Assembly: GCA_035331565.1 (NCBI GenBank) | Contig: DAOLKO010000010.1 | Span: 15,682 to 79,681, forward strand | Length of the DNA: 64,000 nucleotides | Source of the DNA: Blastocatellia bacterium | Lineage (GTDB): Bacteria; Acidobacteriota; Blastocatellia; RBC074 | Direction: 5' to 3' | Shown here: positions 877 through 44,805 of the stretch, one piece after another | Layout of the letters: every line of letters starts with the position of its first letter | Position numbering within the stretch: the first letter of the stretch is position 1 | The notes under the pieces: generated by a model | Seen by the model: the letters and a program-made list of their open reading frames with translations, nothing else | Told to the model about the DNA's origin: nothing | The model's database searches: none | Translations under genes and position numbers: made by a program

Positions 877-2052
877 GTGAAAATCAAACAACTGGATGTC
901 GCCGGATTCAGATCTCTGAAGAATGTGAGTTGGAAGCCAGGGGATTTGAACGTAGTGATTGGCCAAAATGGAACCGGCAAATCGAATTTGCTGCGGATAC
1001 TTGAATTAATCTCCGCCGCCGCCCAAGGCCAACTTGCAAAATATATCGAAGCCCTAGGTGGTATGAGCGCAATATTGTGGGATGGCCTAGCACCTTCTAT
1101 TTTTTTGGGACTAGAGATTGAGCAAGATAGTTCTTCCATGTTTAGAGAAGAAACTTATAAGTTGAAAATTGATGATAATTTTTTTGACCCACTGATAGAC
1201 CGCGAAGTATGGTCTGCTAGAAAACACGCTGATGATAAGAACTTAGTTTTAATAGATCGGGATGCTAAACAAGTGGTTTTCAATGGAAAACCTATTAGTT
1301 CACCTGCAAAAATTCCACAGCAGGAGACATTACTTTCCCTGCTTAATTCGCTGAGCTTCGAGGGAGACGCCTTCGATGAGTCAAGCTCTGCTTACTTATT
1401 TCGCCGTCAGCTAGGAGCATTAAGCGTTTACCACGATTTCGATGTAAGCCAAAACTCCTCAATTAGGCAGCCTGCTGTCCCTCGATATGAACACACAATT
1501 GAGCCAACGGGTCGGAATCTCGTTACGGTTTTGCATACTCTCTATTCTGGCAATCGCGCTTTTAAGCAAAATATCGATTTAGCAATGCGAGCCGCTTTCG
1601 GCAATGATTATGAAGAGATTACCTTTCCTCCTGCTTCAGACCGGCGCATTCAATTCCGTATTCGCTGGAAGACTTTGCGCCGGGAGCAGTCTGCCGCTGA
1701 TCTTTCCGACGGAACGCTACGCTTTCTTTTAATACTCGCAATCTTGTCAATGCCTTTACCATCAAGCCTGATCGCAATTGACGAACCTGAAACAGGACTA
1801 CATCCGTCAATGTTGCCGATTATTGCTGAGTTTGCAGTTGAAGCGTCGTCTCGTACCCAAGTTATTTTCACTACACATTCGCCGCAGTTTCTCAGCGCCT
1901 TCGGCAAGCATCCTCCGACAACAACTGTGGCGGAATGGCAAAATGGCGAAACGTTGCTTCACACGTTAGATAAGGAGCGGTTGGATTATTGGCTTGAAGA
2001 TTATTCCCTCGGAACGCTCTTCGAGTCCGGCGAGTTGGAGGCGATGACGTGA
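877..2052 (+). CDS. ABC/OLD-like AAA ATPase (AAA_21-type).
   Basis: GTG start sits after an AAAGGAG RBS. Walker A is GQNGTGKSNLL, the ABC-signature-like motif is LSDGTLRF and Walker B is LIAIDEPETGLHP. The gene is markedly AT-rich compared with its neighbours. Confidence 0.8.
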   Translation: MKIKQLDVAGFRSLKNVSWKPGDLNVVIGQNGTGKSNLLRILELISAAAQGQLAKYIEALGGMSAILWDGLAPSIFLGLEIEQDSSSMFREETYKLKIDDNFFDPLIDREVWSARKHADDKNLVLIDRDAKQVVFNGKPISSPAKIPQQETLLSLLNSLSFEGDAFDESSSAYLFRRQLGALSVYHDFDVSQNSSIRQPAVPRYEHTIEPTGRNLVTVLHTLYSGNRAFKQNIDLAMRAAFGNDYEEITFPPASDRRIQFRIRWKTLRREQSAADLSDGTLRFLLILAILSMPLPSSLIAIDEPETGLHPSMLPIIAEFAVEASSRTQVIFTTHSPQFLSAFGKHPPTTTVAEWQNGETLLHTLDKERLDYWLEDYSLGTLFESGELEAMT

Positions 2053-2681
2053 AATTCATACTGTTGGTCGAAGGTGATGCCGAGCGAATAGTTTTGCCTG
2101 ACTTCTTTAGACGTTGGCTTAATCCAAAATTGAAGCACCCTGTTAGTATCAAAGCCGTCAAACTCTCCGGCAGCGGTGGTTACTTGAAAGAGTTCGCTGG
2201 GCGAGTAAAAAAGCAGCTTTGCGATTCCGATGCTCACGATCTCATTGCCGTCATAGGGTTGCTTGACCTTTACGGACTACCTCAAAATTTCTATCCAACT
2301 AATTTGCCCAGTGCTGATGAGCGTTATGCTTGGGCGAAGCGAGAACTGGAAAGCCGAGTCGGCCAAGCTAGGTTTCGCCAGTTTTTCGCCGTGCATGAAC
2401 TGGAAGCTTGGTTGCTGAGCGATCCGACTATTTTTCCCAGAGAAGTAAGGGAAAACTTCCCTGCCGCAGTCTCCAGTCCCGAATCCGTCAATTTCAATCA
2501 GCCGCCGGGTGTTCTTTTGGAAAGGTTATATGGGCAAAAGCTGAAGAAATCCTATCAAAAGACTGTTCACGGAAATGACTTGTTCGCCAAACTTGATCCA
2601 GAAACCGCATGTCAAAAGTGCCCGCATTTGAGGGAACTGTTGGACGAAATGCTGGACTTTGCCAAACAGAGTGGGAATTGA
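2049..2681 (+). CDS. DUF4276-family protein (Toprim-like), partner of the upstream ATPase.
   Basis: Its GTG start overlaps the ATPase stop (GTGA). The ~210-aa product begins MKFILLVEGDAERIVLP, typical of DUF4276. It is co-oriented and translationally coupled with the ATPase. Confidence 0.55.
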   Translation: MKFILLVEGDAERIVLPDFFRRWLNPKLKHPVSIKAVKLSGSGGYLKEFAGRVKKQLCDSDAHDLIAVIGLLDLYGLPQNFYPTNLPSADERYAWAKRELESRVGQARFRQFFAVHELEAWLLSDPTIFPREVRENFPAAVSSPESVNFNQPPGVLLERLYGQKLKKSYQKTVHGNDLFAKLDPETACQKCPHLRELLDEMLDFAKQSGN

Positions 2682-4952: not shown

Positions 4953-5225
4953 ATGTTGAAGTTTTCGCAGTTGATCCGTGTGCCGGCGGCAAGCCGGCGT
5001 GACTTTGCTCGAACGGCCGGATGGCGCTCGGATGTGTGTGATGCTCACGCAACCGGAGGTAGCCCTACTTTCCCATCTGTGCTCAGAGTTTCTTCGTCCC
5101 TGACCGCGATGATCCGAATAGTCCCTCAAATTCGGATTTTGCCGGCCTGCGAGCCTGTTGACTTTCGCAAGGGGTTGGATTCGCTCCTCGCCTTGTGCAA
5201 AGACCCGCTCGGACAAGACTCATGA
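4953..5225 (+). pseudogene. IS66-family relic: orf1-like C-terminal piece fused in frame to the first ~37 aa of TnpB (IS66 Orf2), then a stop.
   Basis: IVPQIRILPACEPVDFRKGLDSLLALCKDPLGQD is homologous to the TnpB copy at 13220 (MIQLVPQLRILLACQPVDFRKGLDSLLALCKGSLAQD). The upstream RRDFARTAGWRSDV parallels RRVLERADGARMTL at 13100. Confidence 0.6.
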
Positions 5226-5745: not shown

Positions 5746-6498
5746 TCATGGCGTCCAACCATAGGCAATGCTGGGATGGGTTTCGGGCACCGGCTGCCAG
5801 TCGCCGCCGAAGTGAATATAGGTCAGGCTTTCGTTTTTGTTTACATCGAGGAATCCGGTTTCGGTGTAGGTTTCCTTTAGCCCAAGCCTAGCAATGATTC
5901 TGTCCTGAAGGGCTTCGGCGTAGGTTTTGCCCGTGATCTTTTCGAGAATCAGCGTTAACAGGAAATAGCCCGAATTGCTGTAGGAATTCTTGGTGTCCGG
6001 TTCAAACTCCGGCGTGCCTTTGGCGGTCAGGGCGAGCATTTCATCTTTCGTGATTCCATTCTTCCAGTTTCTTTGCGGAGCCGAATCGCGCCTGACGTTT
6101 GGAATACCGCTGCGATGCGAGAGCATTTGCAGAACGGTAATTTTCGCGGCGTTCGGAACCTGCGGAAAGAACTTGTCCAGCGTATCCGTCAGCTTCAATT
6201 TCTTTTCCTCGGCGAGCTGCATCACCATCGCGGAGGTGTACATTTTGCCAATCGAAGCGATGCGGAAGCGGCTCGTCGAGGTCAGCGTTTTTTTCGTCGT
6301 TCCCTCAATCTGGGCATAACCGATGGCGCGACTGTAAACCACCTTGCTGTCCTGAGCGATGGTGAGACTTCCCATCGCTTTCTTCTTCTCAGCGAGCCGG
6401 TCAAAAAAACTGGTCGAGTTTGGCTGTATCCAGCGACTGGCCGTAGCCTGCGGTGAAGGACGCCAGCATCAGTATCGTTACGAATGGTATTTTGCTTT

Positions 6499-6502
<4 letters not shown>
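5746..6502 (-). pseudogene. Beta-lactamase-family serine hydrolase (class C/PBP-like fold), disrupted by a frameshift in an A7/T7 homopolymer.
   Basis: ATG at 6502 encodes a signal peptide MKSKIPFVTILMLASFTAGYGQSLDTAKLDQFF followed by TGA. A -1 shift in the A7 run 6403-6409 gives ...DRLAEKKKAMGSLTIAQD... joined to the listed ORF 5746..6375. That ORF has the SxxK motif (ASIGK) and the YxN motif (YSNSG). A further frame change near 5746 is possible. Confidence 0.6.
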
Positions 6503-6753
<251 letters not shown>

Positions 6754-6763
6754 GCGGGTCTCC

Positions 6764-7246
6764 TTATACGGTTAGGTCGTTCTCGGACTTCATCTCGACG
6801 GCGGTTTGTAAAAGTCGCTCAAACACGGCGGCGGTAGTGGCAGCCACGACCGAGACAAAAATCATCAAAAGGCCAATCATCACACCGCCTGCAATGTCCT
6901 CCTTACCGCGCTGAACGATAAAGAAGAAAGCTTCTGCCCCCACAATAAAAGCGATCAGGATCAGCGCGCAGTATTTGATCGTCCGCAAGGCTTTCACCGC
7001 GTGTGGCGAAAAGACCTCATTGGCTCCGATGTAACTCAATAGCTTGAAGGCTTGATAAAGCGCGACGAAAAAGGCAATCGAAGCCGTGTAGGCATACACC
7101 AGGAAGGGATCTTTGAAGTAAATCTCAAAGGGTGTGGCGTGCGCATTTCTGCCCTCAAGGTGAGGTTCCCAAAGCATCAGGGCAAGAGCGCCGATACCGA
7201 TAACCACGATGACGATCTGAAGAAATATCGTTGAGCTTCGTTTCAT
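6764..7246 (-). CDS. DUF2975-like integral membrane protein (four predicted TM helices), the usual partner of YozG-type HTH proteins.
   Basis: 160-aa hydrophobic product. It lies 10 nt upstream of the HTH gene on the same strand. Confidence 0.55.
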   Translation of the reverse strand: MKRSSTIFLQIVIVVIGIGALALMLWEPHLEGRNAHATPFEIYFKDPFLVYAYTASIAFFVALYQAFKLLSYIGANEVFSPHAVKALRTIKYCALILIAFIVGAEAFFFIVQRGKEDIAGGVMIGLLMIFVSVVAATTAAVFERLLQTAVEMKSENDLTV

Positions 7247-7323: not shown

Positions 7324-7518
7324 ATGAATATTGTATTGCGAGAATCGAAAGGAGATTTCCAAGTACGAGTACAGACAAATAGGGGCGCGGAAGGTGGGCA
7401 GACTCGAATGCGAGTAGCTTGTGCCGCAGCGCGCGCGCTGCGTAAAAATCTCGGCTTTACGTTGATCGCGGTGTTAACGCTCGCGCTCGGCATCGGTGCG
7501 AATACGGCCATTTTGTAG
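7324..7518 (+). pseudogene. N-terminal stub of an ADOP/MacB-like (FtsX-family) permease.
   Basis: ALRKNLGFTLIAVLTLALGIGANTAIL is the hallmark first TM segment of acidobacterial duplicated orphan permeases. The ORF then hits a stop and there is no downstream continuation. Confidence 0.5.
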
Positions 7519-7521
7519 TCG

Positions 7522-7559
7522 AGCGGGTGTTATGCACTGCAGCGCATAACACCCGCTCA
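7522..7559. terminator. 15-bp perfect stem with an 8-nt loop hairpin between the convergent ADOP stub and the M20 gene.
   Basis: gagcgggtgttatgc-actgcagc-gcataacacccgctc read from the sequence. Confidence 0.4.
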
Positions 7560-7607
7560 TTTACAAGCCACGCGTGGATTCGAGCGACAATCTGACGAAT
7601 TATGGCC

Positions 7608-8753
7608 TCAACACCTCATCATTAAGCTTGTCAACAAAGCGGCACGACGCGGAATATCGGCCAGCAGAATATGTTCATGTTCCGCGTGTGCGCCATCGCC
7701 GTCTACCCCAAGTCCGTCCAACACGGGCACTCCACAAGCAGCAATGAAATTGGCATCGGAACCGCCTCCGACACTGGCTTCGCGCAAATCAAAACCGAGT
7801 TCGGCAGCAAGTTGTCGCGCTTGTTCATACAATGCCAAATTACCGGCTGAACGTGGCATGGGCGGACGATCAAGACCGCCCTCGATGATAAGTTGTGCAT
7901 CTGGCAAAACGGCAGTGAGCGAATTGATTTGCGCGGCAATGGCATCCCACGCCGCCGGTGTTTGAAAGCGAATATCAATGCGGGCTGAGGCTTCTGCCGG
8001 AACTACGTTGGACGTTGTGCCGCCTTGCGTAACGCCCACGTTGATCGTCGTACCGTGCGAATTGTCATTCATCGCTGCGAGTCGCAACGTTTGATGCGCG
8101 AGTTCGACAACTGCATTGACGCCTTTGGTTGGATCGAGTCCGGCGTGCGCAGCGCGTCCGATGACACGCAGCGTGAAATCCGCAATGCCTTTGCGCCCGA
8201 TCTTGACGATACCGCCGGGCAATGGAGGCTCTAACACCAGCGCAGCAACCGCCTGGCACGCTTCGTCTTCGAGCAACACGCGCGAAGTCGCGCTCCCGAC
8301 TTCTTCGTCACAAGTGAGCAACAGTGCGATGGGATGCGCGGTCGGTTGACGATGGCTGATGAGCCGGCGCAAGGCTTCGACGATGACGGCGATACCCGCT
8401 TTCATATCGAACACACCTGGGCCGTGAATCGCGCCTTCGGTCGTTACGCGAAACGGCAATCGCGCCAGCGTCCCGACCGGCCAAACCGTATCGAGATGAC
8501 CGACGATCAGCAATTGCTTTTCGTCCGCACGATGGTTGCCGCGCCAACGCGCCAGCAGATTGGTGCCTGCGGAATCGTGACGAAACAACGTGATTTCCAT
8601 TCCGATCTCGCGCAGTTCCGCCGCGACGAATTGCGCCAGCGCATCCAGGCGCGCGCCGTCACCCGATGGCGATTCGTATTCAACCAGCGTGCGCAACCGT
8701 TCGAGAATGACGGGTTGTTGCGTAGTGAAATGTTTCAGCAAATCTTCAGCCAT
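7608..8753 (-). CDS. M20-family metallopeptidase or N-acyl-amino-acid deacylase (carboxypeptidase G2/ArgE/DapE-like).
   Basis: HLDTVWPVG, GPGVFDMKAG, the EE pair (CDEEVGS) and C-terminal GGSDANF motifs are typical of M20 dimetallohydrolases. Confidence 0.8.
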   Translation of the reverse strand: MAEDLLKHFTTQQPVILERLRTLVEYESPSGDGARLDALAQFVAAELREIGMEITLFRHDSAGTNLLARWRGNHRADEKQLLIVGHLDTVWPVGTLARLPFRVTTEGAIHGPGVFDMKAGIAVIVEALRRLISHRQPTAHPIALLLTCDEEVGSATSRVLLEDEACQAVAALVLEPPLPGGIVKIGRKGIADFTLRVIGRAAHAGLDPTKGVNAVVELAHQTLRLAAMNDNSHGTTINVGVTQGGTTSNVVPAEASARIDIRFQTPAAWDAIAAQINSLTAVLPDAQLIIEGGLDRPPMPRSAGNLALYEQARQLAAELGFDLREASVGGGSDANFIAACGVPVLDGLGVDGDGAHAEHEHILLADIPRRAALLTSLMMRC

Positions 8754-8756
8754 AAT

Positions 8757-9869
8757 TCAGCGCTTGAACGTTTCGCGTCGCACAGTCAGGCGTTCGATCA
8801 AATCTTCGCGCACGCGATAGCCAATGCCTTCGCTTGCCGGCAATTCGATCATGCCTTGCGGCGTCACAGTGACCTCCGGTTCAATAATGTCTTCGTGCCA
8901 ATAGCGCGCCGAAGCCGACACATCGCCGGGCAACGAAAACCCTTGCAACGAAGACATGGCAATGTTGTGCGCACGTCCGATGCCTGCTTCGAGCATGCCG
9001 CCACACCAAACCGGAATGCCGTTATCCAAACAATGTTGTTGAATGCGCCGCGCTTCGCTGTGACCGCCGACACGACCGAGCTTGATGTTGATGATGCGGC
9101 AGGACTGATGCGCAATGGCTTTGCGGGCGTGCGCAAGGCTCAAAATGGATTCGTCCAGGCAGAGCGCTGTTTTCAGTTGTCGTTGCAACACAGCGTGATC
9201 GTGCAAGTCATCATCGGCCAGCGGCTGTTCGATCATCAGCAGATTGAATTCATCCAGTTGTTGCAATGTCGCCAGATCGTCCAATGAATAAGCGGTGTTG
9301 GCGTCCACGGACAAACGAATGCCGGGAAATTGCTCACGAACTTTGGCCACAAAAGCGACATCGCTGCCCGGTTTGATTTTGAGTTTGATGCGGCGATATC
9401 CGGCGGCGAGTTCAGCCGCTACGCGCTCGACCATTAGTTCCGGTGTCGCGCGCAACCCCAATGACACGCCGCATTCGATTTGCGTGCGCGTTCCGCCAAG
9501 CATTTGCCAGAGCGGTTTATTCGCTAACTTTGCCTGCAAATCCCAACAAGCGGTTTCCAATGCGCCCTTTGCCATACGATGTCCGCGCACTGGCGCAAAA
9601 GCCTCGAACACGTCTTCCGCCTTCGTGGGATTGCCTTGCCAAAACAGCGGAATCAAATGTTGTTGCAACGCGAGCCACGCGCCATCAATCCATTCGGCGC
9701 AATAGTAAGGCTCTTCCGGCGCGGTGCATTCGCCCCACCCCGTCGCGCCGCTGCGATCAATAACCTGCACGAGCAGAATGCGACGCTCGGTGGTCAGATC
9801 AACGCTGGTCTGAAAGGGTTCACGCAACGGCAGGCGAATTTCACGCAAGACAATTCGTTCAACGTTCAT
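8757..9869 (-). CDS. Enolase-superfamily enzyme of the MR/MLE subgroup: N-succinylamino acid racemase / o-succinylbenzoate synthase-like.
   Basis: KIKPG...RLSVDANTAY...MIEQPL...CLDES are the metal-ligand and catalytic-Lys motifs. A 4-nt gap separates it from the M20 gene. Confidence 0.75.
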   Translation of the reverse strand: MNVERIVLREIRLPLREPFQTSVDLTTERRILLVQVIDRSGATGWGECTAPEEPYYCAEWIDGAWLALQQHLIPLFWQGNPTKAEDVFEAFAPVRGHRMAKGALETACWDLQAKLANKPLWQMLGGTRTQIECGVSLGLRATPELMVERVAAELAAGYRRIKLKIKPGSDVAFVAKVREQFPGIRLSVDANTAYSLDDLATLQQLDEFNLLMIEQPLADDDLHDHAVLQRQLKTALCLDESILSLAHARKAIAHQSCRIINIKLGRVGGHSEARRIQQHCLDNGIPVWCGGMLEAGIGRAHNIAMSSLQGFSLPGDVSASARYWHEDIIEPEVTVTPQGMIELPASEGIGYRVREDLIERLTVRRETFKR

Positions 9870-9905
9870 GCTGGTTTCAGGGAATGCGAGTAGATTGAGG
9901 CGCGA

Positions 9906-10742
9906 TCATTTTCCATTCGTCAACGCTTTACGCTGGAGTTCATAAACGCCCACGCGCTGAACACCGCGTTCGATAGGGTAAAAATTGATGACCTGATACC
10001 CGGACGCAAATGTATCAGTGAATGCCTGTCGCGTCACGGTGCGCCATTGCACTGCCAGTGCGCGGTCAGCTTCCTGCAACGCACTGATGTCGCCGGGAAT
10101 TTCGATAAAGATTGAAGGCGCGAGCATAATCTTTTGTTCGATGGGGTTTTGTTTTTCGTCACAGCGAATCAGCGCCTGTGCAGCTTGATAGTGGCCGGGC
10201 AAGATCGTAATTGCTCCTGCGATTTTTTGCTTGACGTGTTTGCTCGTCAGCTCCCAGCGAAGCCAGAAACGATCTGTGCCCAGTTGATGCAAGACACTGG
10301 TTGTCTCGCCGTAATAATCCACTTTGTATTGATCGCACACCGCGCCGAGCTTGCCGAAATTGAGCCGCGCGTTGCGGGCTTGCAGCGGATCGAACGTCCA
10401 CGAAACGCGCTGAATGCCGCGCGACAAGCACCATTCGCGTTGTGCGAGTTTCATCCGATAGCCCAACCGACGATCACGATAAGCCGGACTGACTGCGAGC
10501 ATGTCGGAATGAATCGTCAATCCGTCAGCATCCCGCGCGAGAATGCCGAAGACGAATCCGACCAGCGCCGTGCCGTCATACGCTCCCAGCAACATGCCGC
10601 CCGTGTCAGTCACGAGTTTGAGAAAGGGTGACGGAAGAACATCCAGATCGGCTTCGCCCCAGACATCTCGCTGCATTGTCTCGACCGCTTTCATTTCCTC
10701 CAGCGTGCGCAACTCTCTGATATGAATGCCGTCGTAATTCAT
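9906..10742 (-). CDS. GNAT-family N-acyltransferase. In this context it is a candidate N-succinyl/acetyl transferase for amino acids.
   Basis: 278-aa product with a GNAT core (LAVSPAYRDRRLGYRMKL). It sits in the same strand cluster as the NSAR-like and M20 genes. Confidence 0.55.
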   Translation of the reverse strand: MNYDGIHIRELRTLEEMKAVETMQRDVWGEADLDVLPSPFLKLVTDTGGMLLGAYDGTALVGFVFGILARDADGLTIHSDMLAVSPAYRDRRLGYRMKLAQREWCLSRGIQRVSWTFDPLQARNARLNFGKLGAVCDQYKVDYYGETTSVLHQLGTDRFWLRWELTSKHVKQKIAGAITILPGHYQAAQALIRCDEKQNPIEQKIMLAPSIFIEIPGDISALQEADRALAVQWRTVTRQAFTDTFASGYQVINFYPIERGVQRVGVYELQRKALTNGK

Positions 10743-10783
10743 AATTGCTCCTTCGAAGATTATTCTGATCGAATGAACTTTGA

Positions 10784-11311
10784 TTACCGCGTCGCATGAG
10801 CCTGAATCTTTTCGGCATCAAACACGATGACATCAGCAAACATTCCTTCGCCCAGCATTCCTCTTTCCTGGCCGCGTTCGCGCAAGCGCATTTGTTGCGC
10901 GAGCAATGAAGTCATCCGGCGAATCGCTTCTTCCAGCGTGAGCACTTTTTGTTCGCGCACGTAGCGCGCCAGCACACGCGGGAACGAGCCGTAGCTAAGC
11001 GGATGTGGAAAGCCTTCGCCCCAGGCGACCAGATCGCCATCGGTTTCGATCATCGCCCACGGATGCCGCAACAAGCGCACGACATCGGCTTCGTCCATCG
11101 CGTGAAAGATGCCGATAAAGCCGTCTTTGAGTTGCAACTCGATCAGCGCCTTGATGCCGTTCGCCAGTGTTGGCGCTTGTTTCTGGCCACACACGTAATC
11201 GGCCAGCGCGCGTCCGTTGTAGCGTTGATCGGCGGGCAGCTCGCGAAACTGGATGCTGGTTAAATCGCGTCCTGCCATGGTTGGAAAGATCGGTTGAAGC
11301 TTTATCGTCAC
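10784..11311 (-). pseudogene. C-terminal ~175 aa of an N-acyl-D-amino-acid deacylase (D-aminoacylase). The N-terminal ~300 aa are missing.
   Basis: SYGSFPRVLARYVREQKVLTLEEAIRRMTSL...GMFADVIVFD matches the D-aminoacylase C-terminal region. The ORF start abuts the stop of the upstream dehydrogenase gene, leaving no room for the catalytic N-terminal domain. Confidence 0.5.
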
Positions 11312-11317
11312 TAAACG

Positions 11318-12373
11318 TTATTGCGCGGCGCGCAGTCGTTGTTCGGCGAAGGCTTCTGCCGCCGCTGCAGTCGTGATTTTTTCCTGCGCGGCAAGATCGT
11401 AAACCGCCAGCAACGTGTCGTAAATTCCGGCAATGCGTTGTTCGAGTTGGGATGGGGATTCGCCCAGCAGGTAAGCGCCGCCGCTGATGATGCCGCCCGC
11501 GTTGAGGATGAAATCGGGAGCATAAAGAATGTCACGCGCTTCGATAACTTCGGCGTCTGCTTCTGTGTTTAATTGATTGTTCGCCGCTCCGGCGATGATG
11601 GCCGCTTGCAGACGCGGGATCGTTTGTTCGTTGAGGATTCCGCCCAACGCACAGGGTGCAAAGACATCCGCCGCTGCATCGTAAATTTCTTCGGGTGCAA
11701 CTGTGACAGCATCGCAGGCGCGAGCGCAGGCGGCGGCGCGCGCGGCGTCTACGTCAGTCACAATCAAACGCGCACCCGCTTCTTTCAGCAATTGCGCCAA
11801 TGCAAATCCGACATTGCCACAGCCTTGAAGCGCGACCGTCTTGCCACGTAAATCATCTCCGCCCCAACGTTGTCGCGCCGAAGCCTGTATGCCACGCAAC
11901 ACTCCGCGCGCCGTCCACGGCGAAGGATCGCCGCCGCGTCCGGCAAAGCCCGCGACAAAGCGCGTTTCCTGTGCGGCGGCTTGCATATCTTCGGGGCTGG
12001 TGCCGACGTCTTCGCCCGTAATGAAGCGGCCTTGCAGACTTTCGACAAAACGTCCGTGCGCACGAAACCACGCGGTGCGGTCAATGGTTCGCCCATCGCC
12101 GATGATGACGGCTTTGCCGCCGCCGAATGGCAATCCGGCTGCCGCGTTTTTGTACGTCATTCCGCGCGACAACCGCAGCACATCCGCCAGAGCTTCATCA
12201 AAGCTGTGATAAGGCCAGAAGCGCGTGCCGCCTACGGCTGGCCCAAGCTTCGTGCTGTGCAAGGCAATGATGCCGCGATAGTCCATGTCCGGTTCGTGCC
12301 AGGTCACGACTTTTTCGTAGTCTTCTACCTCAATCGTTTCAACGGCAGGGGTATTCATGTTTTGGTGTGTCAT
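11318..12373 (-). CDS. Glu/Leu/Phe/Val dehydrogenase family enzyme (Leu/Phe dehydrogenase-like, ~352 aa).
   Basis: GGTRFWPY, GLPFGGGKAV and a Rossmann GCGNVG. The start is placed at ATG 12373 (MTHQNMNTPAVE). The listed 493-aa ORF has a compositionally aberrant N-terminal extension. Confidence 0.8.
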   Translation of the reverse strand: MTHQNMNTPAVETIEVEDYEKVVTWHEPDMDYRGIIALHSTKLGPAVGGTRFWPYHSFDEALADVLRLSRGMTYKNAAAGLPFGGGKAVIIGDGRTIDRTAWFRAHGRFVESLQGRFITGEDVGTSPEDMQAAAQETRFVAGFAGRGGDPSPWTARGVLRGIQASARQRWGGDDLRGKTVALQGCGNVGFALAQLLKEAGARLIVTDVDAARAAACARACDAVTVAPEEIYDAAADVFAPCALGGILNEQTIPRLQAAIIAGAANNQLNTEADAEVIEARDILYAPDFILNAGGIISGGAYLLGESPSQLEQRIAGIYDTLLAVYDLAAQEKITTAAAAEAFAEQRLRAAQ

Positions 12374-12912
12374 CGAAGGCGCTAGCTTGCTATTCAGGTA
12401 TGTGGGCAGAAATGCTTTTTTATCATTCAGCAACCGGCTGCGCCAGATACGCGCGCGGGTAGAGTTTGCGCAGGACGCTGTCAATCCCTTCCCGGTTATA
12501 GCGGTTTTCAGGTGCGTGCGACCTGCAACCACAGATAAACACTGATGAACACGGCCCACAAAGACATCTATTGATTCGACCCGCAACCAGAGCACGAACT
12601 CTGTGCTTTCCAGCACAGGCGGGAACATGCCGGTCGGATTGCGGCGCACACCTTCAGCATCGGAAATCCAGCCTGCCGCCGTCGGCCTTGCCAGATCGTC
12701 AGCGTCCGCAATCTCGATGTAGTGTGTCCCAGCGGTAAGCGGGCGTGACTTGCTCGATTGGCTGCTTCTCTTTCGGCAAGGCTGCGTGACGCCAAGCACC
12801 GTCCTTTCCTATCTTCTCCTGCGGCATTCAATTCTTTTTTGTGGAGGTTTCCAATGAACGATTCACTTCCCGACGATCCGGCAAAACTCCAGGCCCGCTT
12901 TGAACACTCTCG

Positions 12913-13206
12913 ATGGTTTGCCGTGTTTGCCGACTTCACCCGACCTCGCTTCACAAGCGCGCCAAACCGGCCTCAACCTCTTCCAAGCCCGACACGCCTG
13001 TTCACGAATCCGCCGGCACATCCCGGACGGATTTCTATTGCTTGTCGCCGGCCGTCTCTTTACAGCAATCGCCGCTTTCCACTCCGGCGGCGGAGAATTG
13101 TCGGCGGGTGCTTGAGCGCGCCGACGGCGCTCGAATGACACTGGTCTTACCGCAGCTTGAGACCACGGCGCTCTCGACTCTCTGCTCGAATTTCCTGCGC
13201 CACTGA
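12913..13206 (+). pseudogene. IS66-family orf1-like remnant.
   Basis: Its C-terminus VLERADGARMTLVLPQL is homologous to the fragment at 5010-5060. It lies immediately upstream of an IS66 TnpB gene. Confidence 0.35.
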
Positions 13207-13219
13207 CGGCCCAAGTCCG

Positions 13220-13699
13220 ATGATTCAACTGGTTCCCCAACTCAGGATTCTGCTCGCCTGCCAGCCCGTTGATTTCAGGAAGGGGCTCGATTCGCTCCTT
13301 GCCCTGTGCAAAGGCTCGCTGGCGCAAGACCCTTTCTCCGGCACTTTGTTCGTCTTTCGCAACCGCGCCGGCACCGCCCTCAAACTGCTCGTCTATGACG
13401 GCACAGGCTATTGCCGCATCCAGTGGTGGCCGCGGGCTTCGGACACACCTCTCCATTCGCTCGAAGCCCAACAACTCTCGGTTTTGCTCTACAACGGATT
13501 GCCCGATCAGGCAGGCGTTGCCCCCCCTGGCGCAAGCTCGATCCCAACACCTTCGCTCAAGCTGCGCGTACTACAGCTTTCACTTCCAATTCTGCCGCAG
13601 GCTCGCCTCGCGCATAAGTCCACGGCAGAGACGCTGCCGGATTGGCCCGCGCTTCGGCTCAATGCCGCATCAGCCACAACAGGTACGCCCAGGCACTGA
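13220..13699 (+). mobile_element. tnpB: IS66-family accessory protein TnpB (Orf2). The expected stop is missing and the frame reads on into antisense of tnpC.
   Basis: MIQLVPQLRILLACQPVDFRKGLDSLLALCKGSLAQDPFSGTLFVFRNRAGTALKLLVYDGTGYCRIQWWPRASDTPL is a canonical IS66 Orf2. Confidence 0.7.
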
Positions 13700-14750
13700 C
13701 TTCGTTCAACCGACACGTCTCGATCAGACTGAGCAGGATTGCGCCCACCGACGCCCCGTGCTCGTTCTTGTAAAAGAGCGCGTTCTTGCGCAGCAGCACC
13801 GCCCGCTTCAAGGCACGCTCGGCTTGATTGTTATCCAGCGGCGCATTCGCCACACTCAGAAATCGTGTCAGCCCGGCCCAGTGTTTCAACACGTAGCGCA
13901 GCGCCTGTCCCAAACTGCTGTTCGGTTCGACCAGGCGTTCGGCAAACTGCGCCTCGATCCATTCCCGCAGGTCTTTCATCACCGCGCCGCTCTTCATTTG
14001 ATGGTGCTTCAGTCGCTGCCTGGCCTCCAGCCCTTTTGTCTCGGCGTCCGTCTCGTAGACCTTCGAAACCGCATCCAGCACGACTCCGCACTCTGACGGG
14101 AAGATCGCCTCGATCTCGATGAACTTCCGCCGCGCGTGCGGTGAGGCACTTGGCTTCAATCGTCTCCTCCTCTCCGCTCCAGTTGGCCGCCGGCGCATCC
14201 GACATTTGAATCGGCCTTCCCAGATCGGCGCTCCGCACCTTCAACAACTCGTCGAGATTCTCGCCCGCGTGCCGACGACCATTGGCATAGAGCGCGATCC
14301 GATGCCCACCGACTTCAATCACCATCCCGCTGGTGTTCGTCGCTCGCCGCTCCGACTCTTTGAGTTCTTTTTTCTCCTTCAAGCACGACAGGATTTTCAC
14401 TCGCGTGTCATCGCTGAAGATCACTTCGCCATCCGCCGCCAGGCGACGCAAATACAAAGACACCGGTAGCGCCGCATCCGCCACCGCTTCGCAGCGCTCG
14501 AACTGCACCGATTCCGCCAGCGGTCAATCGCTCCTGGCAGGCCCCAGCAGCGCAAGATTTCTTGTTCGTAGCGTGTCGCCCCGACCAGAGGCTGCCCGGT
14601 CAATTGGATGAAGATGGCCGGCTCTTTGGCGGAGGCCCCGGCATCGCTTCGAGCGTCCGTTCCGGGGCCGAAAATCAAGCGATTGAGCCGCTTGATGGAA
14701 GCGTTCTTACGCTCAAGCAGCGAGGCCATCGAAAGCACCAAGCGCAGCAA
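13659..14750 (-). pseudogene. IS66-family transposase (TnpC) split over three frames. It converges on the tnpB copy, so it belongs to a different, truncated IS copy.
   Basis: The N-terminal piece has LIFGPGTDAR, the middle piece GMVIEVGGHRIALYANG, and the C-terminal piece HARRKFIEIEA...NNQAERALKRAVLLRKN. At least two frameshifts separate them. Confidence 0.65.
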
Positions 14751-21737: not shown

Positions 21738-24695
21738 CTACCCTCTGTTCAAAACCTCATCCAGATTCAGGATGGTGTTGGCCGTCACGATCCAGGCGGC
21801 GAATTCGATTTTGCCGACGCCCACAGGCACGCGCGCGCGGCTGAGTTTCAGCAAAGCGTCGGCCTTTTCCGGGGCGGCGGCGAAATCGGTTTGCGCGTCC
21901 TTCCACAGCGCCAGCAGCGGCGCAGTTTCGCCTGCGTGCAAAGGACGGATCAACGCCAACCGCAATCCATAAGCAGCGCGCGATTCCGGCGTGGCGGCTT
22001 CGAGCAACATACGTCCGGCCAATCCGGCGGCGGCTTCCAGATAAACAGGATCGTTCAACGTAACCAACGCCTGAAGCGGCGTGTTCGTGCGCAGGCGGCG
22101 AATCTGGCAGACTTCGCCGCTGCCGCCGTCAAAAGTCGTCATCGCGGGATAGGGCGTGGTGCGTTTCAGGTAAGTGTACAAACCGCGCCGGAAACGGTCT
22201 TCGCCTTCGGCGTCCACCCAGGTTTTGGCGTTGTAGGTAGTGCGCCACAGTCCAGCGGGTTGCGGCGGCATCACAGGCGGGCCGCCCATCTTCAGCGACA
22301 GCAAACCGGCCACGGACAGCGCTTGGTCACGCACGGCTTCCGCGCCAAGCCGGAACCGCGCGCCGCGCGATTGCAGTAAATTGCGCGGATCGGCTTCTCG
22401 CAAAGTCGCAGTCGTTTCGGAAGCCTGCCGATAGGTATCGCTCATGACGATGGTTTTGAGCAGTTTTTTCAGCGACCAGCCGCCGTCGCGGTATTCCGCC
22501 GCCAGATAATCCAGCAAGACCGGATTCGTCGGCGCGGAACCGAGTGCGCCAAAATCTTCCTCTGTTTCGACAAGGCCCACGCCGAACAGCCGCGCCCATA
22601 CGCGATTGGCCCAAACGCGCGGCGTCAACGGATTGTCGCGGCTAACCAGCCATTGCGCTACGCCCAACCGATTGAGCGGCGCACCTTCCGGCAGTTTTCC
22701 GAAAGCTGCGGGCAGTCCCGGCGAAACCACATCGCCCTGATCGAGGAAACTGCCGCGCCGGTGGATTTTCGTCACGCGCTGTTTGTCGGCGGCCATTTCG
22801 CGCATCAGCGGCAATCGCACAATGCTGTCGTTGAATTTCGCCTGCGCCGTGTAAGCCGCCGCCAGATCGTCGTGCAACTTGCGCAGTTCGGGCGCAATGG
22901 CCGGCGGCTGCAACATCGCCGGATCGGCTTCGCTGGTCGAAAGGCGGAAGCGGCGTAAGGTCAGCGAATCGCCCGCTTGTTGCGAAAGCGTGACGCGCAA
23001 TTTCGCTTCGGCGGTCAAACGCAATGGCGCGGCAAAATCGAAGATGGCCGTGTGCGATTCGTGCGTGCGCGGAGCGATGGCCCAGCCGGTTTTCTCGTCG
23101 CCATCAATGGCCGCGTCAATGGGCTTTTTGTTTTCCGCGAAATCGGCGCGCGCATTGGTCAGCTTGACGGGTCGCGCGCTTGAAGCATCAAGCAGTTCTG
23201 CCGTCAATTCCGACAGCGTGAAATTCGACGTGCCGCCGTTGCGCCCAACAGCCAGTTGGCCGCTGCCGAGCTTTTCCGGCAGGACTTCCAATCGCAGCGC
23301 CGTGTGCGTTCCCGGCGGAAGCGTCAGGGTCACAACGTAAGTGTCTTCGGGCGGGGCTTTGCTGCCGGCGGTGATCGCGCCGTCTTTTTGCGCGGCCAGC
23401 GTCGCGCCGTCTTTGGAAAAAAGTTCCGTGACGACGAGCTTACGCCATTGGCGTTCGGCGGATTCGTTGGCTTTACCGGCAGCGTCTTCCAACGCCGTCA
23501 GTTCAGTGTTGAGCTTTTGCAGATGATTCTGCCAGTACCGGCGTTCGTCCTGCTCTTTCGGCGAAAGCAATTCCAAAAAGGGCGCATCGTCGCTCCGGTC
23601 TGCGTCTTCGGTTTGATTGAATAGCGCGTAAAAGCCGTAGTATTCGGCGTGTGAAATCGGGTCGTATTTATGCGAATGGCATTTGGCGCAGCCCATCGTC
23701 AATCCCATCCAGACTTGCACAGTGGTGTCCACGCGGTCTTTGACGGCGGCGACGCGAAACTCTTCGTTGTCCGTGCCGCCTTCATCGTTGGTCATCGTGT
23801 TGCGGTGAAAGGCCGTGGCGATCATCTGCTGCTCAGTGGGATTGGGCAGCAAATCTCCGGCAAGCTGTTCGGTCGTGAATTGATCGAGCGGCATATCGGC
23901 GTTGAGCGCGTTGACCACCCAATCGCGATACGGCCAGATGGTGCGGCCCAGGTCTTTTTCGTAGCCTTTGGTATCTGCGTAGCGCGCCAAATCCAGCCAC
24001 ATTCGCGCCCAGTGTTCGCCGAATTGCGGCTTGGCCAACAGTTCATTCACCATTCGTTCATAAGCCGCCGGCGAAGGATCGGCGGCGAATTTGTCCGCCA
24101 GTTCCGGCGTAGGCGGCAGCCCGATCAAATCCAACCATAACCGGCGCACCAACGTATGCGGCATGGCTGCGGGCCGCAGCGACAGCCCTTTTGCTGCAAG
24201 CGCGGCGCTGACCAGCGCGTCAATAGGCCTTTGTCCGGCAGCCACGGCAGGACGAACGACAGGCTCAAACGACCAATGCCGTCCCCACGCAGCGCCTTCG
24301 ACAATCCAGCGGCGCAAGGTTTCGATCTGTTCCGGCGAAATATGTTTGTGCGAGCCGGGCGGCGGCATCACGGCGTCAGGATCGTTGCTGGTGATGCGCG
24401 CCAGCAACAGGCTTTTTTGCGGCTCGCCGGGCGCAACGGGAAATCCGCTGCGACGTTTGGCTTTGGCTTCGGCTTCAATGTCCAGACGCAACCCGGCTTT
24501 GCGGTTTCTTTCGTCAGGCCCGTGGCAAGCGAAGCAGTTCGCCGAAAGAATCGGCAACACGTCGCGGCCAAACCGCACGGGTTCGGCAGCCGAAGGCATC
24601 GTTGAAGAAAACTGCCAGGAGAAAAGCACGAACACCGCCGTAAGCAACAGCAGGAGTTTGCACAAACGCTTGCGAAAGGAAGCTTGTCTTTTCAT
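21738..24695 (-). CDS. PSCyt1/DUF1549/DUF1553 (PSD1) protein, a Planctomycete-type cytochrome-like multidomain protein.
   Basis: N-terminal CFACHGP haem-binding-like motif after a signal peptide. The 985-aa architecture is typical of DUF1549-DUF1553 proteins. Confidence 0.65.
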   Translation of the reverse strand: MKRQASFRKRLCKLLLLLTAVFVLFSWQFSSTMPSAAEPVRFGRDVLPILSANCFACHGPDERNRKAGLRLDIEAEAKAKRRSGFPVAPGEPQKSLLLARITSNDPDAVMPPPGSHKHISPEQIETLRRWIVEGAAWGRHWSFEPVVRPAVAAGQRPIDALVSAALAAKGLSLRPAAMPHTLVRRLWLDLIGLPPTPELADKFAADPSPAAYERMVNELLAKPQFGEHWARMWLDLARYADTKGYEKDLGRTIWPYRDWVVNALNADMPLDQFTTEQLAGDLLPNPTEQQMIATAFHRNTMTNDEGGTDNEEFRVAAVKDRVDTTVQVWMGLTMGCAKCHSHKYDPISHAEYYGFYALFNQTEDADRSDDAPFLELLSPKEQDERRYWQNHLQKLNTELTALEDAAGKANESAERQWRKLVVTELFSKDGATLAAQKDGAITAGSKAPPEDTYVVTLTLPPGTHTALRLEVLPEKLGSGQLAVGRNGGTSNFTLSELTAELLDASSARPVKLTNARADFAENKKPIDAAIDGDEKTGWAIAPRTHESHTAIFDFAAPLRLTAEAKLRVTLSQQAGDSLTLRRFRLSTSEADPAMLQPPAIAPELRKLHDDLAAAYTAQAKFNDSIVRLPLMREMAADKQRVTKIHRRGSFLDQGDVVSPGLPAAFGKLPEGAPLNRLGVAQWLVSRDNPLTPRVWANRVWARLFGVGLVETEEDFGALGSAPTNPVLLDYLAAEYRDGGWSLKKLLKTIVMSDTYRQASETTATLREADPRNLLQSRGARFRLGAEAVRDQALSVAGLLSLKMGGPPVMPPQPAGLWRTTYNAKTWVDAEGEDRFRRGLYTYLKRTTPYPAMTTFDGGSGEVCQIRRLRTNTPLQALVTLNDPVYLEAAAGLAGRMLLEAATPESRAAYGLRLALIRPLHAGETAPLLALWKDAQTDFAAAPEKADALLKLSRARVPVGVGKIEFAAWIVTANTILNLDEVLNRG

Positions 24696-24885
24696 AGCCG
24701 GAAAGATTGAAAATTTATTGGTGAATGCGATGAACCAAAAACGCGCGTAGTCTAAATCGGAAGCCGGTTTTGTGGAACAGAACTTCAGCCCAGGTCGGCG
24801 TTTCGGATTGCGAACGACACAAAGCCCGCCATCGCATTGTCGCGATGGCGGGCTTTCAAGAATATGAGTGACGAGGCCGCCGCCG

Positions 24886-25260
24886 TTATTCCGCTTCCGG
24901 TTTCAAGCGGCGCAGACCGCGCAAAAACTCAGCGTCGCTGCGCCTGTCCAGCAGTTTGAAATCGGCATTGGGGGGAGCATCAACAATCACCATTACGTCT
25001 TCGCCGGCATTTTCAGTCAACCACAGCGCGAAGACGTGATAAACCGGAACATTGAGCAGTCGCGCCCGCAAGACATTCTTTTCGCGCAGTTGCGCGCGTT
25101 CAATTGCCTTTTCGATTTTCTCGGCCAGCGGCGAAATATAAAGCTCGCACAGTTTATGACCGGTCTTTCCGTGAGCCATCGAACATGCGTAACACAGCGG
25201 GTGGTAATAAAAAAGTAATGCTGCGAATTTGAGAAAAGCCAATAACAATGGGCGATCCAT
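24886..25260 (-). CDS. Hypothetical 124-aa protein.
   Basis: ORF only. It has an N-terminal hydrophobic segment and no recognisable motif. Confidence 0.3.
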   Translation of the reverse strand: MDRPLLLAFLKFAALLFYYHPLCYACSMAHGKTGHKLCELYISPLAEKIEKAIERAQLREKNVLRARLLNVPVYHVFALWLTENAGEDVMVIVDAPPNADFKLLDRRSDAEFLRGLRRLKPEAE

Positions 25261-25411
25261 TAATCTCCCAGCATTACTTTTTCATGACTACCCCGCCTTT
25301 TTCGCTAATTTACTTCCAAGCTCTGCAGGTAAATTGATCATTGCGCTCATCTGTATTTCTCCTTACGCACAAACATACATTTGCATCGGACGTTGCAATA
25401 GTTCTGCGCTC

Positions 25412-28355: not shown

Positions 28356-29039
28356 TTAACGAGAAGCCGGCACTCGTAAAAGCTGACGAATGGTTGCGCC
28401 GTTTTGGCCGGGGTGGGCTTCGAGCAAACACGCGGCGAAGCCTGTCAGGTGCGCCACAGCGAAGCTGATGCCGTTCAGATTGCGTTCGGGCGGCACGCCG
28501 GGAATCGGGCGCGCATAGCCTGAAGCCAGAAAACATTGTTTGGCTTCATCCCAGCGATACGCTTCGCGCGGACAATCCCAATCCAGCGACACGCCCAACA
28601 CCGACGGCAAACAGCCGGGCAGAGAATCCGCGCCGTTGATGTCGCGCGCGGCGACGACCGGCAAGTTTTCCGCTTGCGCCAACACGCGCTCGAACTTTTC
28701 CCGATGATTCAAATTCAGCGTCCCCAGGCTCAGGTTGACGAGGTGCATTTGATTCGCCGCGCACCATTCCAGCGCGCGCAAGATCGTTTCAATGTTGGTG
28801 GTCAGCGCGCGGTCAAAGACTTTGACGGCGTAAAGCTCTGCGTCCGGCGCTTTTTCGCGGATGGCTCCGGCGACAGCCGTGCCGTGGCCGATGAAATCCA
28901 GATACTGTTCTTCGGTTCCGCCGGGCGTGATGCGCATGCCGCCGGCCACGCCGCCGACGTGCGGATGAACTGGATTGACGCCACTGTCAATGATGGCGAC
29001 GCGGACGCCGCGCCCGGTCAGTGTTGGAGTTGCAGGCAT
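28356..29039 (-). CDS. qhpE: Small subtilisin-like serine protease, candidate QhpE (leader peptidase for the QHNDH gamma subunit).
   Basis: Catalytic triad contexts IIDSGV (Asp), GHGTAVAG (His) and GISFAVAHLTG (Ser) in only 227 aa. It overlaps the ABC exporter gene by 22 nt. Confidence 0.6.
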   Translation of the reverse strand: MPATPTLTGRGVRVAIIDSGVNPVHPHVGGVAGGMRITPGGTEEQYLDFIGHGTAVAGAIREKAPDAELYAVKVFDRALTTNIETILRALEWCAANQMHLVNLSLGTLNLNHREKFERVLAQAENLPVVAARDINGADSLPGCLPSVLGVSLDWDCPREAYRWDEAKQCFLASGYARPIPGVPPERNLNGISFAVAHLTGFAACLLEAHPGQNGATIRQLLRVPASR

Positions 29040-30703: not shown

Positions 30704-30706
30704 AAT

Positions 30707-31717: not shown

Positions 31718-31725
31718 GGCAGGGG

Positions 31726-32358
31726 TTAGTCGAGAATGCCTGCGAGTTTGAGCGTCAGCCCGTCGAACAACAGTTCGCCGGTGATGGTCTTGGGATGATT
31801 GAGTACTTTGGCGCGCGCGCCGGGACGATAAACGTGAGCTTTCTTTTCCAGCGGATCAATCAGCCAGCCGAGTTGCGCGCCGTTTTCCAGATATTCTTCC
31901 ATCTTCTCTTTGAGCATATCGAGATCATCGCTTTCAGAGCGTAACTCGACGACAAAGTCGGGGCAGATGGGCGCAAATTTCTTGCGCAATTTTTTGGGAA
32001 TGGCTTCCCAACGCTCACGCGCGATCCAGGAAAGGTCGGGCGAGCGTTTCGCGCCATTGGGCAGCGTGAACCCCGTGGCGGAATCAAAGCCGACGCCCGT
32101 TCCGTCCGTTTTGGCCCAAATGCCAAACTCGACGGCGAGATTGAAGTTCCGATTCCCGCCTTCACTGCCCGTCGGCATCATGATTATCATTTGCCCCTCC
32201 TTGGTCATCTCGATCCGCAGTTCATTGTTGTTGGCGCAGAACTCGAAGAATTCATCGTCGGTCACTTTTTTGCGAAGCGGCCCAAGGCGAATAACCATTG
32301 TGTCCAAATCAGGCGGAGCGGAGCGCGGAGTAATTTGCGGCGATAGGCGTGTACTCAT
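31726..32358 (-). CDS. Uma2-family (DUF820) PD-(D/E)xK endonuclease-like protein.
   Basis: 210-aa product. The pattern IEMTKEGQMIIMMPTGSEGGNRNFNLAVEFGIW...PDFVVELRSESDD is typical of Uma2. The real start is ATG 32358; the longer listed ORF overlaps the upstream gene. Confidence 0.6.
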   Translation of the reverse strand: MSTRLSPQITPRSAPPDLDTMVIRLGPLRKKVTDDEFFEFCANNNELRIEMTKEGQMIIMMPTGSEGGNRNFNLAVEFGIWAKTDGTGVGFDSATGFTLPNGAKRSPDLSWIARERWEAIPKKLRKKFAPICPDFVVELRSESDDLDMLKEKMEEYLENGAQLGWLIDPLEKKAHVYRPGARAKVLNHPKTITGELLFDGLTLKLAGILD

Positions 32359-32369
32359 AATTGATCCTC

Positions 32370-33296: not shown

Positions 33297-33301
33297 ACTT
33301 G

Positions 33302-34423: not shown

Positions 34424-34441
34424 TTTGGTTGCCTGACAAGC

Positions 34442-34984: not shown

Positions 34985-35000
34985 TTCAATTCAATGGGTT

Positions 35001-44801: not shown

Positions 44802-44805
44802 GGGT

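Follow-up and report, generated by a model that had tools for sequence, protein, structure and literature searches.

A three-component route for the irreversible conversion of D- to L-amino acids has been assigned to Geobacillus kaustophilus (2006 work, as summarised in bioRxiv 10.1101/2022.03.03.481873 and PMC12006748). The same pathway is assigned to operons from Lysinibacillus and Roseiflexus. [quoted passage not shown] The DgcN-DgcA N-acetyl-D-glutamate pathway follows the same logic, in that a D-amino acid is acylated, its N-acyl form is racemised by an enolase-superfamily enzyme, and the product is deacylated.

The stretch of DNA analysed as a whole, here called the window, comprises 64 kb of the genome of an uncultured soil acidobacterium (Blastocatellia) and contains an island of about 8 kb between recG and hemB. 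An earlier sequence-only reading placed GNAT, enolase, and M20 genes back to back, in exact agreement with the ORF calls, which assign all three to the minus strand (Table 1), with spacers of 36 nt between GNAT and NSAR and 3 nt between NSAR and M20. We consider it about 70% likely that these three intact genes specify the known irreversible D-to-L route, a reading drawn from the sequence and first put forward in that earlier account; subfamily assignment, catalytic residues, and recurrent linkage in other genomes all support it at the level of sequence and comparative context.

Table 1. Features of the island and its boundaries (positions in the window)
Feature	Position	Strand	Details
IS66 orf2-derived remnant, left island boundary	5107..5219	+	direct repeat D1, 76% identical to 13218-13330
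Beta-lactamase-family serine hydrolase fragment	5746..6375	-	Beta-lactamase profile positions 18-206 of 329
Palindrome, 27-nt arms	7513..7566	.	repeat pair I2, 85% complementary, no loop
Carboxypeptidase-G2-like M20 metallohydrolase	7608..8753	-	381 aa; Peptidase_M20 + M20_dimer, 1cg2
Putative N-succinylamino acid racemase, NSAR/OSBS subfamily	8757..9869	-	370 aa; TIGR01928, PDB matches, catalytic residues
Two-domain GNAT acyltransferase	9906..10742	-	278 aa; Acetyltransf_1 3.4e-07
D-aminoacylase pseudogene relic, both ends missing	10784..11311	-	175 codons from GTG; Amidohydro_3 positions 354-454 of 472
Leucine-dehydrogenase-type L-amino acid dehydrogenase, intact, first gene of the co-directional block	11318..12373	-	ELFV_dehydrog_N + ELFV_dehydrog
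Scrambled IS66 remnants, right boundary	13157..14198	.	orf2 fragment (+), DDE transposase C-terminal half (-)

As judged by profiles and alignment, the enolase is a member of the NSAR/OSBS subfamily (MLE subgroup, enolase superfamily). Profile searches recover its MR_MLE_N (PF02746, 1.1e-13) and MR_MLE_C (PF13378, 7.6e-44) domains, it scores 316.3 bits against TIGR01928 (cutoff 200.65), and it matches the PDB entries 2zc8 (4.7e-96), 1r0m (1.5e-93), and 1sja (1.1e-90). The KxK motif and second lysine by which the subfamily is recognised (K163 and K263 in AmyNSAR), together with the carboxylate metal ligands D189, E214, and D239, are present, and the full catalytic set of K162/K164, D189, E214, D239, K263, and R266 is found in the sequence and invariant in the alignment. 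R266 lies within the motif NIKLGRVGG and corresponds to a second-shell arginine that the NSAR/OSBS subfamily conserves but other OSBS subfamilies lack (PMC12006748). With TIGR01928 above its cutoff and every catalytic residue in place, the initial description of this enzyme as NSAR/OSBS-like holds. An identity with DgcA, the N-acetyl-D-Glu racemase, was rejected, as the window enolase reaches only 121 bits against the DgcA model NF042940 (cutoff 400).

The first gene of the trio encodes a proposed D-amino acid N-succinyltransferase, as suggested by its family and its position. Its GNAT fold was confirmed, with N-alpha-acetyltransferases as the nearest folds, and a sequence search of the PDB returned nothing significant. 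Full-length homology extends to proteins of Lysinibacillus (8.5e-31), Priestia (8e-44), and Deinococcus (4e-43), and the family adjoins NSAR in Deinococcus, Streptomyces, Lysinibacillus, Priestia, Sulfitobacter, and Gemmatirosa. The nearest relatives outside the lineage (68%, 56%, 52%, and 48% identity) have no adjoining NSAR, and a metagenome scan with this GNAT yielded two loci only, one of them already known.

The last gene encodes an M20 hydrolase, the proposed N-succinyl-L-amino acid desuccinylase of the putative pathway. It contains Peptidase_M20 (PF01546, 3.4e-34) and M20_dimer (PF07687, 1.1e-22) domains and matches carboxypeptidase G2 (CPG2, 1cg2) at 1.8e-53; H86, D116, E150/E151, E175, and H356 align with the metal and catalytic motifs of CPG2, and the metal ligands are complete. 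None of the named family models is reached at cutoff, and assignment as a glutamate carboxypeptidase equivalog was rejected (PRK06133, 269 bits with the cutoff at 349), leaving an enzyme that is related to CPG2 only. Nor is it an orthologue of the desuccinylase encoded in Bacillaceae operons: the Lysinibacillus M20 aligns over 80 residues only, at 31% identity (E 3.6e-04). The survey of loci suggests that two M20 subfamilies can serve, interchangeably, in the last step of the pathway. Immediately 3' of the M20 stop lies a palindrome (Table 1) at which the transcription unit may end; it was unflagged by a terminator scan, the promoter and terminator scan of the region gave results no better than shuffles, and an Rfam search of the region gave no match.

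In the proposed route, the GNAT would N-acylate a free D-amino acid, with succinyl-CoA as the most likely donor; both the donor and the D-specificity are presumed. The racemase would then interconvert the N-succinyl amino acids by a two-base proton exchange between K164 and K263 through an Mg-stabilised enolate. Finally, the M20 enzyme would cleave the L-form only, an L-specificity that is likewise presumed, yielding the L-amino acid and succinate and so pulling the equilibrium. The side-chain range of the pathway is one that we infer.

The grouping of these genes is beyond chance, and its adjacencies recur in related loci and in other phyla. The comparison set consisted of the 80 closest loci listed in a contig scan, nearly all titled as Acidobacteriota MAGs and including neither Geobacillus nor Roseiflexus; the cross-phylum sample consisted of plasmid records. 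No linkage is seen more often than GNAT-NSAR adjacency (45 of the 80 closest acidobacterial species loci listed), and in 12 of the same 80 the gene that immediately follows NSAR encodes a CPG2-like M20 (M20A). Both GNAT and M20A flank NSAR in 0 of the 80 closest loci listed.

These linkage patterns bear on the alternative that survives best, in which the racemase and M20 enzyme salvage pre-formed environmental N-acyl-D-amino acids (N-acetyl or other), and the GNAT either serves a separate role, such as D-amino acid detoxification, or uses acetyl-CoA. Consistent with this idea, NSAR-M20A pairs without a GNAT within 10 kb are found in Pyrinomonadaceae and Blastocatellia, and the relative at 83% identity carries a SnoaL-like gene where the GNAT would be. 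The proximity of the GNAT fold to N-alpha-acetyltransferases also fits, as does the original discovery of NSAR-family enzymes as N-acylamino acid racemases, which PDB entry names record. Against it, GNAT-NSAR is the commonest linkage among the closest loci listed and extends to six other lineages, and the trio is tightly packed here. Furthermore, stand-alone GNATs of the same family are present in Pyrinomonadaceae, indicating that the partner may simply be unlinked in such genomes. We regard separate salvage as unlikely, and favour the complete D-to-L route.

Upstream of the trio, the sequence-only reading had recognised a 5'-truncated D-aminoacylase gene. The truncation is real, and it affects the C-terminal end as well. 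The relic covers only the part equivalent to residues 383-521 in a homologue of 564 aa, or to 341-441 in the 480-aa 3gip, so that about 380 N-terminal residues are missing, all metal ligands included, and homologues extend about 45 residues further at the C-terminal end. In D-aminoacylase these ligands include His62, His64, and Cys91 (PMC12149444). A full-length D-aminoacylase (EC 3.5.1.81) is a barrel of about 480-560 aa with N-terminal His-x-His, Cys, and His metal ligands, features that the relic lacks, and its N-terminal part is absent from every frame of the window. Nineteen contigs of the same population carry the relic as a fixed feature.

In the related acidobacterial loci L031 and L065, the gene immediately upstream of the GNAT encodes a complete D-aminoacylase, indicating that the relic marks an ancestral arrangement. 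The serine hydrolase fragment, which corresponds to residues 61-227 in an NSAR-linked homologue of 464 aa, is likewise a relic, the second from a gene set for using D-peptides. Intact D-peptide loci in other Acidobacteria combine a TonB receptor, M19 dipeptidase, serine hydrolase, D-aminoacylase, GNAT, RpiR, and NSAR, and in Deinococcus sp. QL22 D-aminoacylase, serine hydrolase, and RpiR accompany the NSAR-GNAT pair. The survey of loci suggests that the pathway is frequently part of a larger locus for the import and cleavage of D-amino-acid-containing peptides, and the two relics in the window would be leftovers of such a locus. The proposal that a D-amino-acid salvage locus has been remodelled here is supported by the intact D-aminoacylase-GNAT arrangement in the related loci and by the IS66 debris that brackets the island.

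At the right boundary, this debris retains TnpB_IS66 profile positions 2-60 of 101 and DDE_Tnp_IS66 positions 155-283 of 284. A composite transposon was considered and rejected, because the IS66 pieces are incomplete and do not share one orientation; the region is referred to as an IS-scarred island instead. Directly upstream of the D-aminoacylase relic lies a leucine dehydrogenase gene that was absent from the earlier account. Its product matches 8gxd (2.4e-103) and the leucine dehydrogenase 6acf (2.4e-101), and contains the GGGK and GCGNVG motifs; a leucine dehydrogenase near NSAR is found in 0 of the 80 closest loci listed. This enzyme, which now heads the block, may convert the L-product to a 2-oxo acid. 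Tentatively, and with less confidence than for the trio itself, IS66-mediated rearrangement may have reassembled the trio under the leucine dehydrogenase. The result would be a four-enzyme route by which D-branched-chain or other hydrophobic D-amino acids pass through the L-form to 2-oxo acids with a gain of NADH, without a D-amino acid oxidase or dehydrogenase; in it the CPG2-type M20 would take the place of the aminoacylase-type desuccinylase that Bacillaceae use, without being its orthologue.

The same debris could be taken to mean that the island is decaying cargo, and that the trio has no current role and is headed for pseudogenisation. The same 8 kb contains both gene relics and the broken-up IS66 remnants, and in a related metagenomic locus the trio has visibly decayed to GNAT(1-198), a foreign MR_MLE gene, NSAR(229-368), and M20(2-84). 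Nevertheless, all three frames in the window are full length with complete catalytic residues, and dN/dS is 0.10-0.15 across the trio (0.12-0.15 for NSAR and 0.10-0.14 for M20, calculated with relatives of 95% and 83% identity), which places all three genes under purifying selection. The trio arrangement is, moreover, fixed in 19 contigs from several samples. Ongoing decay of the trio appears very improbable.

The sequence-only reading had named grouping of the enolase with menaquinone-pathway OSBS, together with a men operon context elsewhere in the genome, as what would speak against its reading. One menaquinone-pathway enzyme, the Enterococcus faecalis OSBS (1wue), belongs to the same NSAR/OSBS subfamily, is 46% identical to the window enolase, and is encoded in a menB-menE-menF-menD-menH-menC cluster, a context that the window enolase lacks. 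A neighbour-joining tree separates the window NSAR from this men-operon OSBS, and MenB, MenD, MenF, and MenH were undetected in the 64-kb window and about 100 related loci, tblastn with E. coli MenB/D/F/H/E/C queries returning only two weak AMP-ligase matches. At the level of the phylum, acidobacterial proteomes contain the futalosine route (MqnA/C/D) and lack MenF and MenB (PMC3914697). That the enolase is an o-succinylbenzoate synthase of menaquinone synthesis, with GNAT and M20 as unrelated neighbours, is the least probable alternative of all: the NCBIfam name of TIGR01928 is menC, public annotation labels its homologues o-succinylbenzoate synthase, members of the subfamily are often promiscuous for OSBS activity according to the literature, and 1wue (1.3e-93) is as similar to it as the racemases are, but the men genes are missing from the window and the related loci and the linkage of GNAT and M20 to the enolase is conserved.

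Homologues annotated across the phylum as "o-succinylbenzoate synthase" are probably racemases. The D-to-L reading would extend a pathway characterised in Geobacillus to the Acidobacteria, which are abundant in soil and feed on microbial necromass, a material with a high content of D-amino acids. It overturns nothing, and its use lies in annotation and in models of soil nitrogen cycling.

Among the systems that could be compared in sequence, plasmid operons of Lysinibacillus fusiformis (pMGMM7) and Priestia megaterium encode an NSAR that is 47-49% identical to that in the window and a GNAT of about 275 aa that is 27-31% identical over its full length. These operons are likewise co-directional and tightly packed (aminoacylase-type M20, GNAT, NSAR), but their M20 belongs to the aminoacylase (amidohydrolase) subfamily and matches the window M20 over the dimerisation domain only (E ~1e-4). 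An uncharacterised plasmid operon of Streptomyces sp. SYP-A7193 combines the same three families, including a CPG2-like M20 that is 44% identical, and adjoins genes for a serine hydrolase with a beta-lactamase fold and for a peptide ABC transporter; it differs in its order, M20-GNAT-NSAR, and contains neither the D-aminoacylase relic nor the dehydrogenase. Loci L013, L031, and L065 and a plasmid of Deinococcus sp. QL22 join NSAR and GNAT to D-aminoacylase and beta-lactamase-fold hydrolases, and these loci are intact, with TonB receptor, M19 dipeptidase, and RpiR genes in addition, whereas the window keeps the hydrolases as fragments only. Relative to the G. kaustophilus operon, the locus described here is set apart by its acidobacterial host, its D-aminoacylase relic, and the leucine dehydrogenase at its head.

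The trio of GNAT, N-succinylamino acid racemase (NSAR)-type enolase and M20 peptidase uses an M20 variant of the carboxypeptidase G2 (CPG2)-like kind, and lies in an IS66-scarred island with remnants of a more extensive locus for D-peptide utilisation. On the proposed route, the GNAT would N-succinylate a D-amino acid, the enolase would racemise the product and the M20 enzyme would free the L-amino acid; these substrates, the acyl donor and the stereochemistry are what we infer. ORF calling in the window yields five minus-strand genes that share one direction in this region, with spacers of 6, 41, 36 and 3 nt from dehydrogenase through D-aminoacylase relic, GNAT and enolase to M20; the coordinates that the sequence-only reading had given for its cluster are exact. 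A palindrome with 27-nt arms follows the M20 stop codon. One copy of a 22-nt motif, whose threefold occurrence may be chance, falls inside the GNAT-enolase spacer. In all three trio genes dN/dS is 0.10-0.15 against both the 95% and the 83% relative (related loci named by identity to the window proteins), indicating that selection maintains all three.

Features of the window, in order of position
Feature	Position	Strand	Remarks
ATPase/DUF4276 pair	877-2681		next to recG; AAA_21/AAA_15 ATPase 877-2052 overlaps DUF4276 protein 2049-2681
IS66 orf2-derived direct repeats	5107-5219, 13218-13330		76% identical
Truncated beta-lactamase-family gene	5746-6375
DUF2975 membrane protein, HTH_26 regulator	6499-7246	-	inside island, between M20 gene and beta-lactamase fragment
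22-nt motif	7406-7427, 9882-9903, 12210-12231		73-86% identical; second copy in GNAT-enolase spacer
M20 peptidase	7608-8753	-	with dimerisation domain (Pfam)
MR_MLE enolase-superfamily protein	8757-9869	-	TIGR01928, 316 bits; curated cutoff 200.65
GNAT	9906-10742	-	Acetyltransf_1, 3.4e-07 (Pfam)
D-aminoacylase fragment	10784-11311	-	Amidohydro_3 (Pfam), profile positions 354-454 of 472
ELFV dehydrogenase ORF	11318-12799	-	amino acid dehydrogenase homology only in last ~350 codons, from about 12373
PSCyt1/PSCyt2/PSD1 protein and others	21738-28204, 54721-60263		planctomycete-type (985 aa), DUF5695 protein (930 aa); further on TonB-dependent receptor (1266 aa), amidase
Quinohemoprotein amine dehydrogenase-type cluster	28356-38550	-	QhpA-like haem subunit 36769-38550; radical SAM protein 35342-36796; weak beta-propeller-type match 33302-34423, far under Pfam cutoff
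Probable integrated mobile element	38938-51099		tyrosine integrase 38938-40068; Prim-Pol/DUF927 protein 42102-44801; several family-less ORFs, up to tRNA-Arg(CCT) 51026-51099

Family membership and catalytic residues are established for the trio. The closest solved structures to the enolase are N-acylamino acid racemases from Thermus (2zc8, 4.7e-96), Deinococcus (1r0m) and Amycolatopsis (1sja); its residue numbers coincide with those of the Amycolatopsis NSAR, and when it is aligned with homologues from acidobacteria, Lysinibacillus, Priestia and Deinococcus, K162/K164, D189, E214, D239, K263 and the second-shell R266 are invariant. The M20 enzyme is related to CPG2 (1cg2, 1.8e-53), with H86, D116, E150/E151, E175 and H356 lining up with the metal and catalytic motifs, and reaches no curated cutoff in NCBIfam. 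Its similarity to the Lysinibacillus and Priestia M20 proteins is marginal (E ~1e-4), and it therefore belongs to a different subfamily. The GNAT matched no NCBIfam profile and no relative in a PDB sequence search, and about 110 further residues in its C-terminal part are unmatched among the top hits; across its full length it shows homology to the GNATs of Lysinibacillus, Priestia and Deinococcus.

The alternative is that the enolase is an o-succinylbenzoate synthase (OSBS, MenC) of the menaquinone route. The Enterococcus men-operon enzyme 1wue scores similarly to the racemases, so that similarity alone cannot tell NSAR from OSBS within this subfamily, as published work, which turns to genome context, likewise holds. 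Unlike the window enolase, the Enterococcus homologue is encoded within menB-menE-menF-menD-menH-menC, and E. coli MenB, C, D, E, F and H, used as tblastn queries, gave only two weak acyl-CoA-ligase-type matches in the window together with some 100 related loci. The phylogeny that the sequence-only reading had proposed as a check points the same way: in a neighbour-joining tree the window enolase and two close relatives form a long basal branch of the acidobacterial clade, apart from the Enterococcus sequence. In five acidobacterial proteomes, MenF/MenB occur in none, "MenC" in four and MqnA, MqnC and MqnD in all (Zhi et al. 2014, PMC3914697, Table 1), an argument against an OSBS role that would hold at the level of the phylum. 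Deinococcus-Thermus follows the same pattern, with "MenC" homologues beside MqnA/C/D in 12/12 proteomes (PMC3914697, Table 1), and the homologues with solved structures from Deinococcus and Thermus bear the name N-acylamino acid racemase.

The linkage of the racemase was surveyed in the best 80 NSAR loci (52-60% identity; nearly all titled Acidobacteriota MAGs) from a scan of species-representative genomes. A GNAT homologue lies directly upstream in 45, usually as MazG-GNAT-NSAR; a CPG2-like M20 (45-51% identical) lies directly downstream in 12, after a SUF operon and mostly in Pyrinomonadaceae and Blastocatellia; neither adjoins NSAR in 23. Since none of the 80 has both neighbours, the full trio in one operon appears specific to the window lineage within this sample. 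The 95% relative carries the same three genes, the 83% relative (L008) has a SnoaL-like gene followed by NSAR-M20, and in the 77% relative the trio is visibly broken; the closest GNATs from beyond the lineage are stand-alone genes. Across the 80 loci the NSAR homologue, publicly annotated as o-succinylbenzoate synthase, has the look of a core gene with fixed housekeeping neighbours (MazG-GNAT-NSAR in most Terriglobia-type loci, SUF operon-NSAR-M20 in Pyrinomonadaceae). In L008 (1-12336), a long co-directional block of aminotransferase, ceramidase-like, SelA-like, amidohydrolase, MFS, aldehyde dehydrogenase, class-III aminotransferase and SnoaL-like genes terminates in NSAR-M20, and in the metagenomic locus L001 the GNAT comes after a comparable SelA/aminotransferase block. 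There (10001-12457) and in L003 (1060-3516), a broken trio retains GNAT residues 1-198, NSAR 229-368 and M20 2-84, together with a foreign MR_MLE gene (26% identical).

The suggestion that a locus for D-amino acid salvage has been remodelled is supported and can be made more specific by the relic, the beta-lactamase fragment, the IS66 debris and intact counterparts elsewhere. The relic aligns with residues 383-521 of a 564-aa acidobacterial D-aminoacylase and 341-441 of the 480-aa N-acyl-D-glutamate deacylase 3gip, and homologues run about 45 residues beyond its stop; the N-terminal part, which holds the His, His and Cys metal ligands (PMC12149444), was found nowhere in the window. Blastocatellia MAGs carry an annotated 164-aa call identical to the relic, and 19 contigs from several samples share the order IS66 debris, dehydrogenase, relic, GNAT, NSAR, M20, DUF2975, HTH, beta-lactamase fragment, recG. 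The final ~20 codons of the relic are almost unalignable in the 95% relative, against 95% identity in flanking genes, which would fit neutral decay, with very little sequence behind the comparison. The orf2 repeats and further IS66 fragments bracket the region, which sits between recG and hemB. In two acidobacterial loci (L031, L065) the gene directly upstream of GNAT is an intact D-aminoacylase, in a block of TonB receptor, M19 dipeptidase, beta-lactamase/DUF3471, D-aminoacylase and GNAT divergent from RpiR-NSAR; another related locus (L013) and Deinococcus sp. QL22 have similar gene sets.

Upstream of the relic lies an intact leucine-dehydrogenase-type enzyme (8gxd, 2.4e-103; 6acf, 2.4e-101), a gene linked to NSAR in none of the comparison loci. 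Its position and the reported preference of NSARs for hydrophobic substrates allow the speculation that it oxidises the pathway's L-product to the 2-oxo acid. Elsewhere in the window, the ATPase/DUF4276 pair is of a type that occurs in defence systems, and the amine dehydrogenase-type cluster also includes an ABC exporter, a peptidase U32, a short subtilase piece and a Uma2-family protein.

The same linkage recurs in other phyla. A ~250-280 aa GNAT of this family adjoins an NSAR homologue in Deinococcus radiodurans MP1, Deinococcus sp. QL22, Streptomyces, Priestia megaterium, Lysinibacillus fusiformis, Sulfitobacter and Gemmatirosa (plasmid records). Published work (bioRxiv 10.1101/2022.03.03.481873; PMC12006748) states that the D-to-L pathway genes were first defined in Geobacillus kaustophilus and that Lysinibacillus and Roseiflexus NSAR/OSBS genes share operons with them. 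The Lysinibacillus order is peptide transporter, M20, GNAT, NSAR. On the Streptomyces plasmid, serine hydrolase, M20, GNAT and NSAR form a single block whose M20 is 44% identical to that of the window; the CPG2-like subfamily is thus used with GNAT and NSAR elsewhere too.
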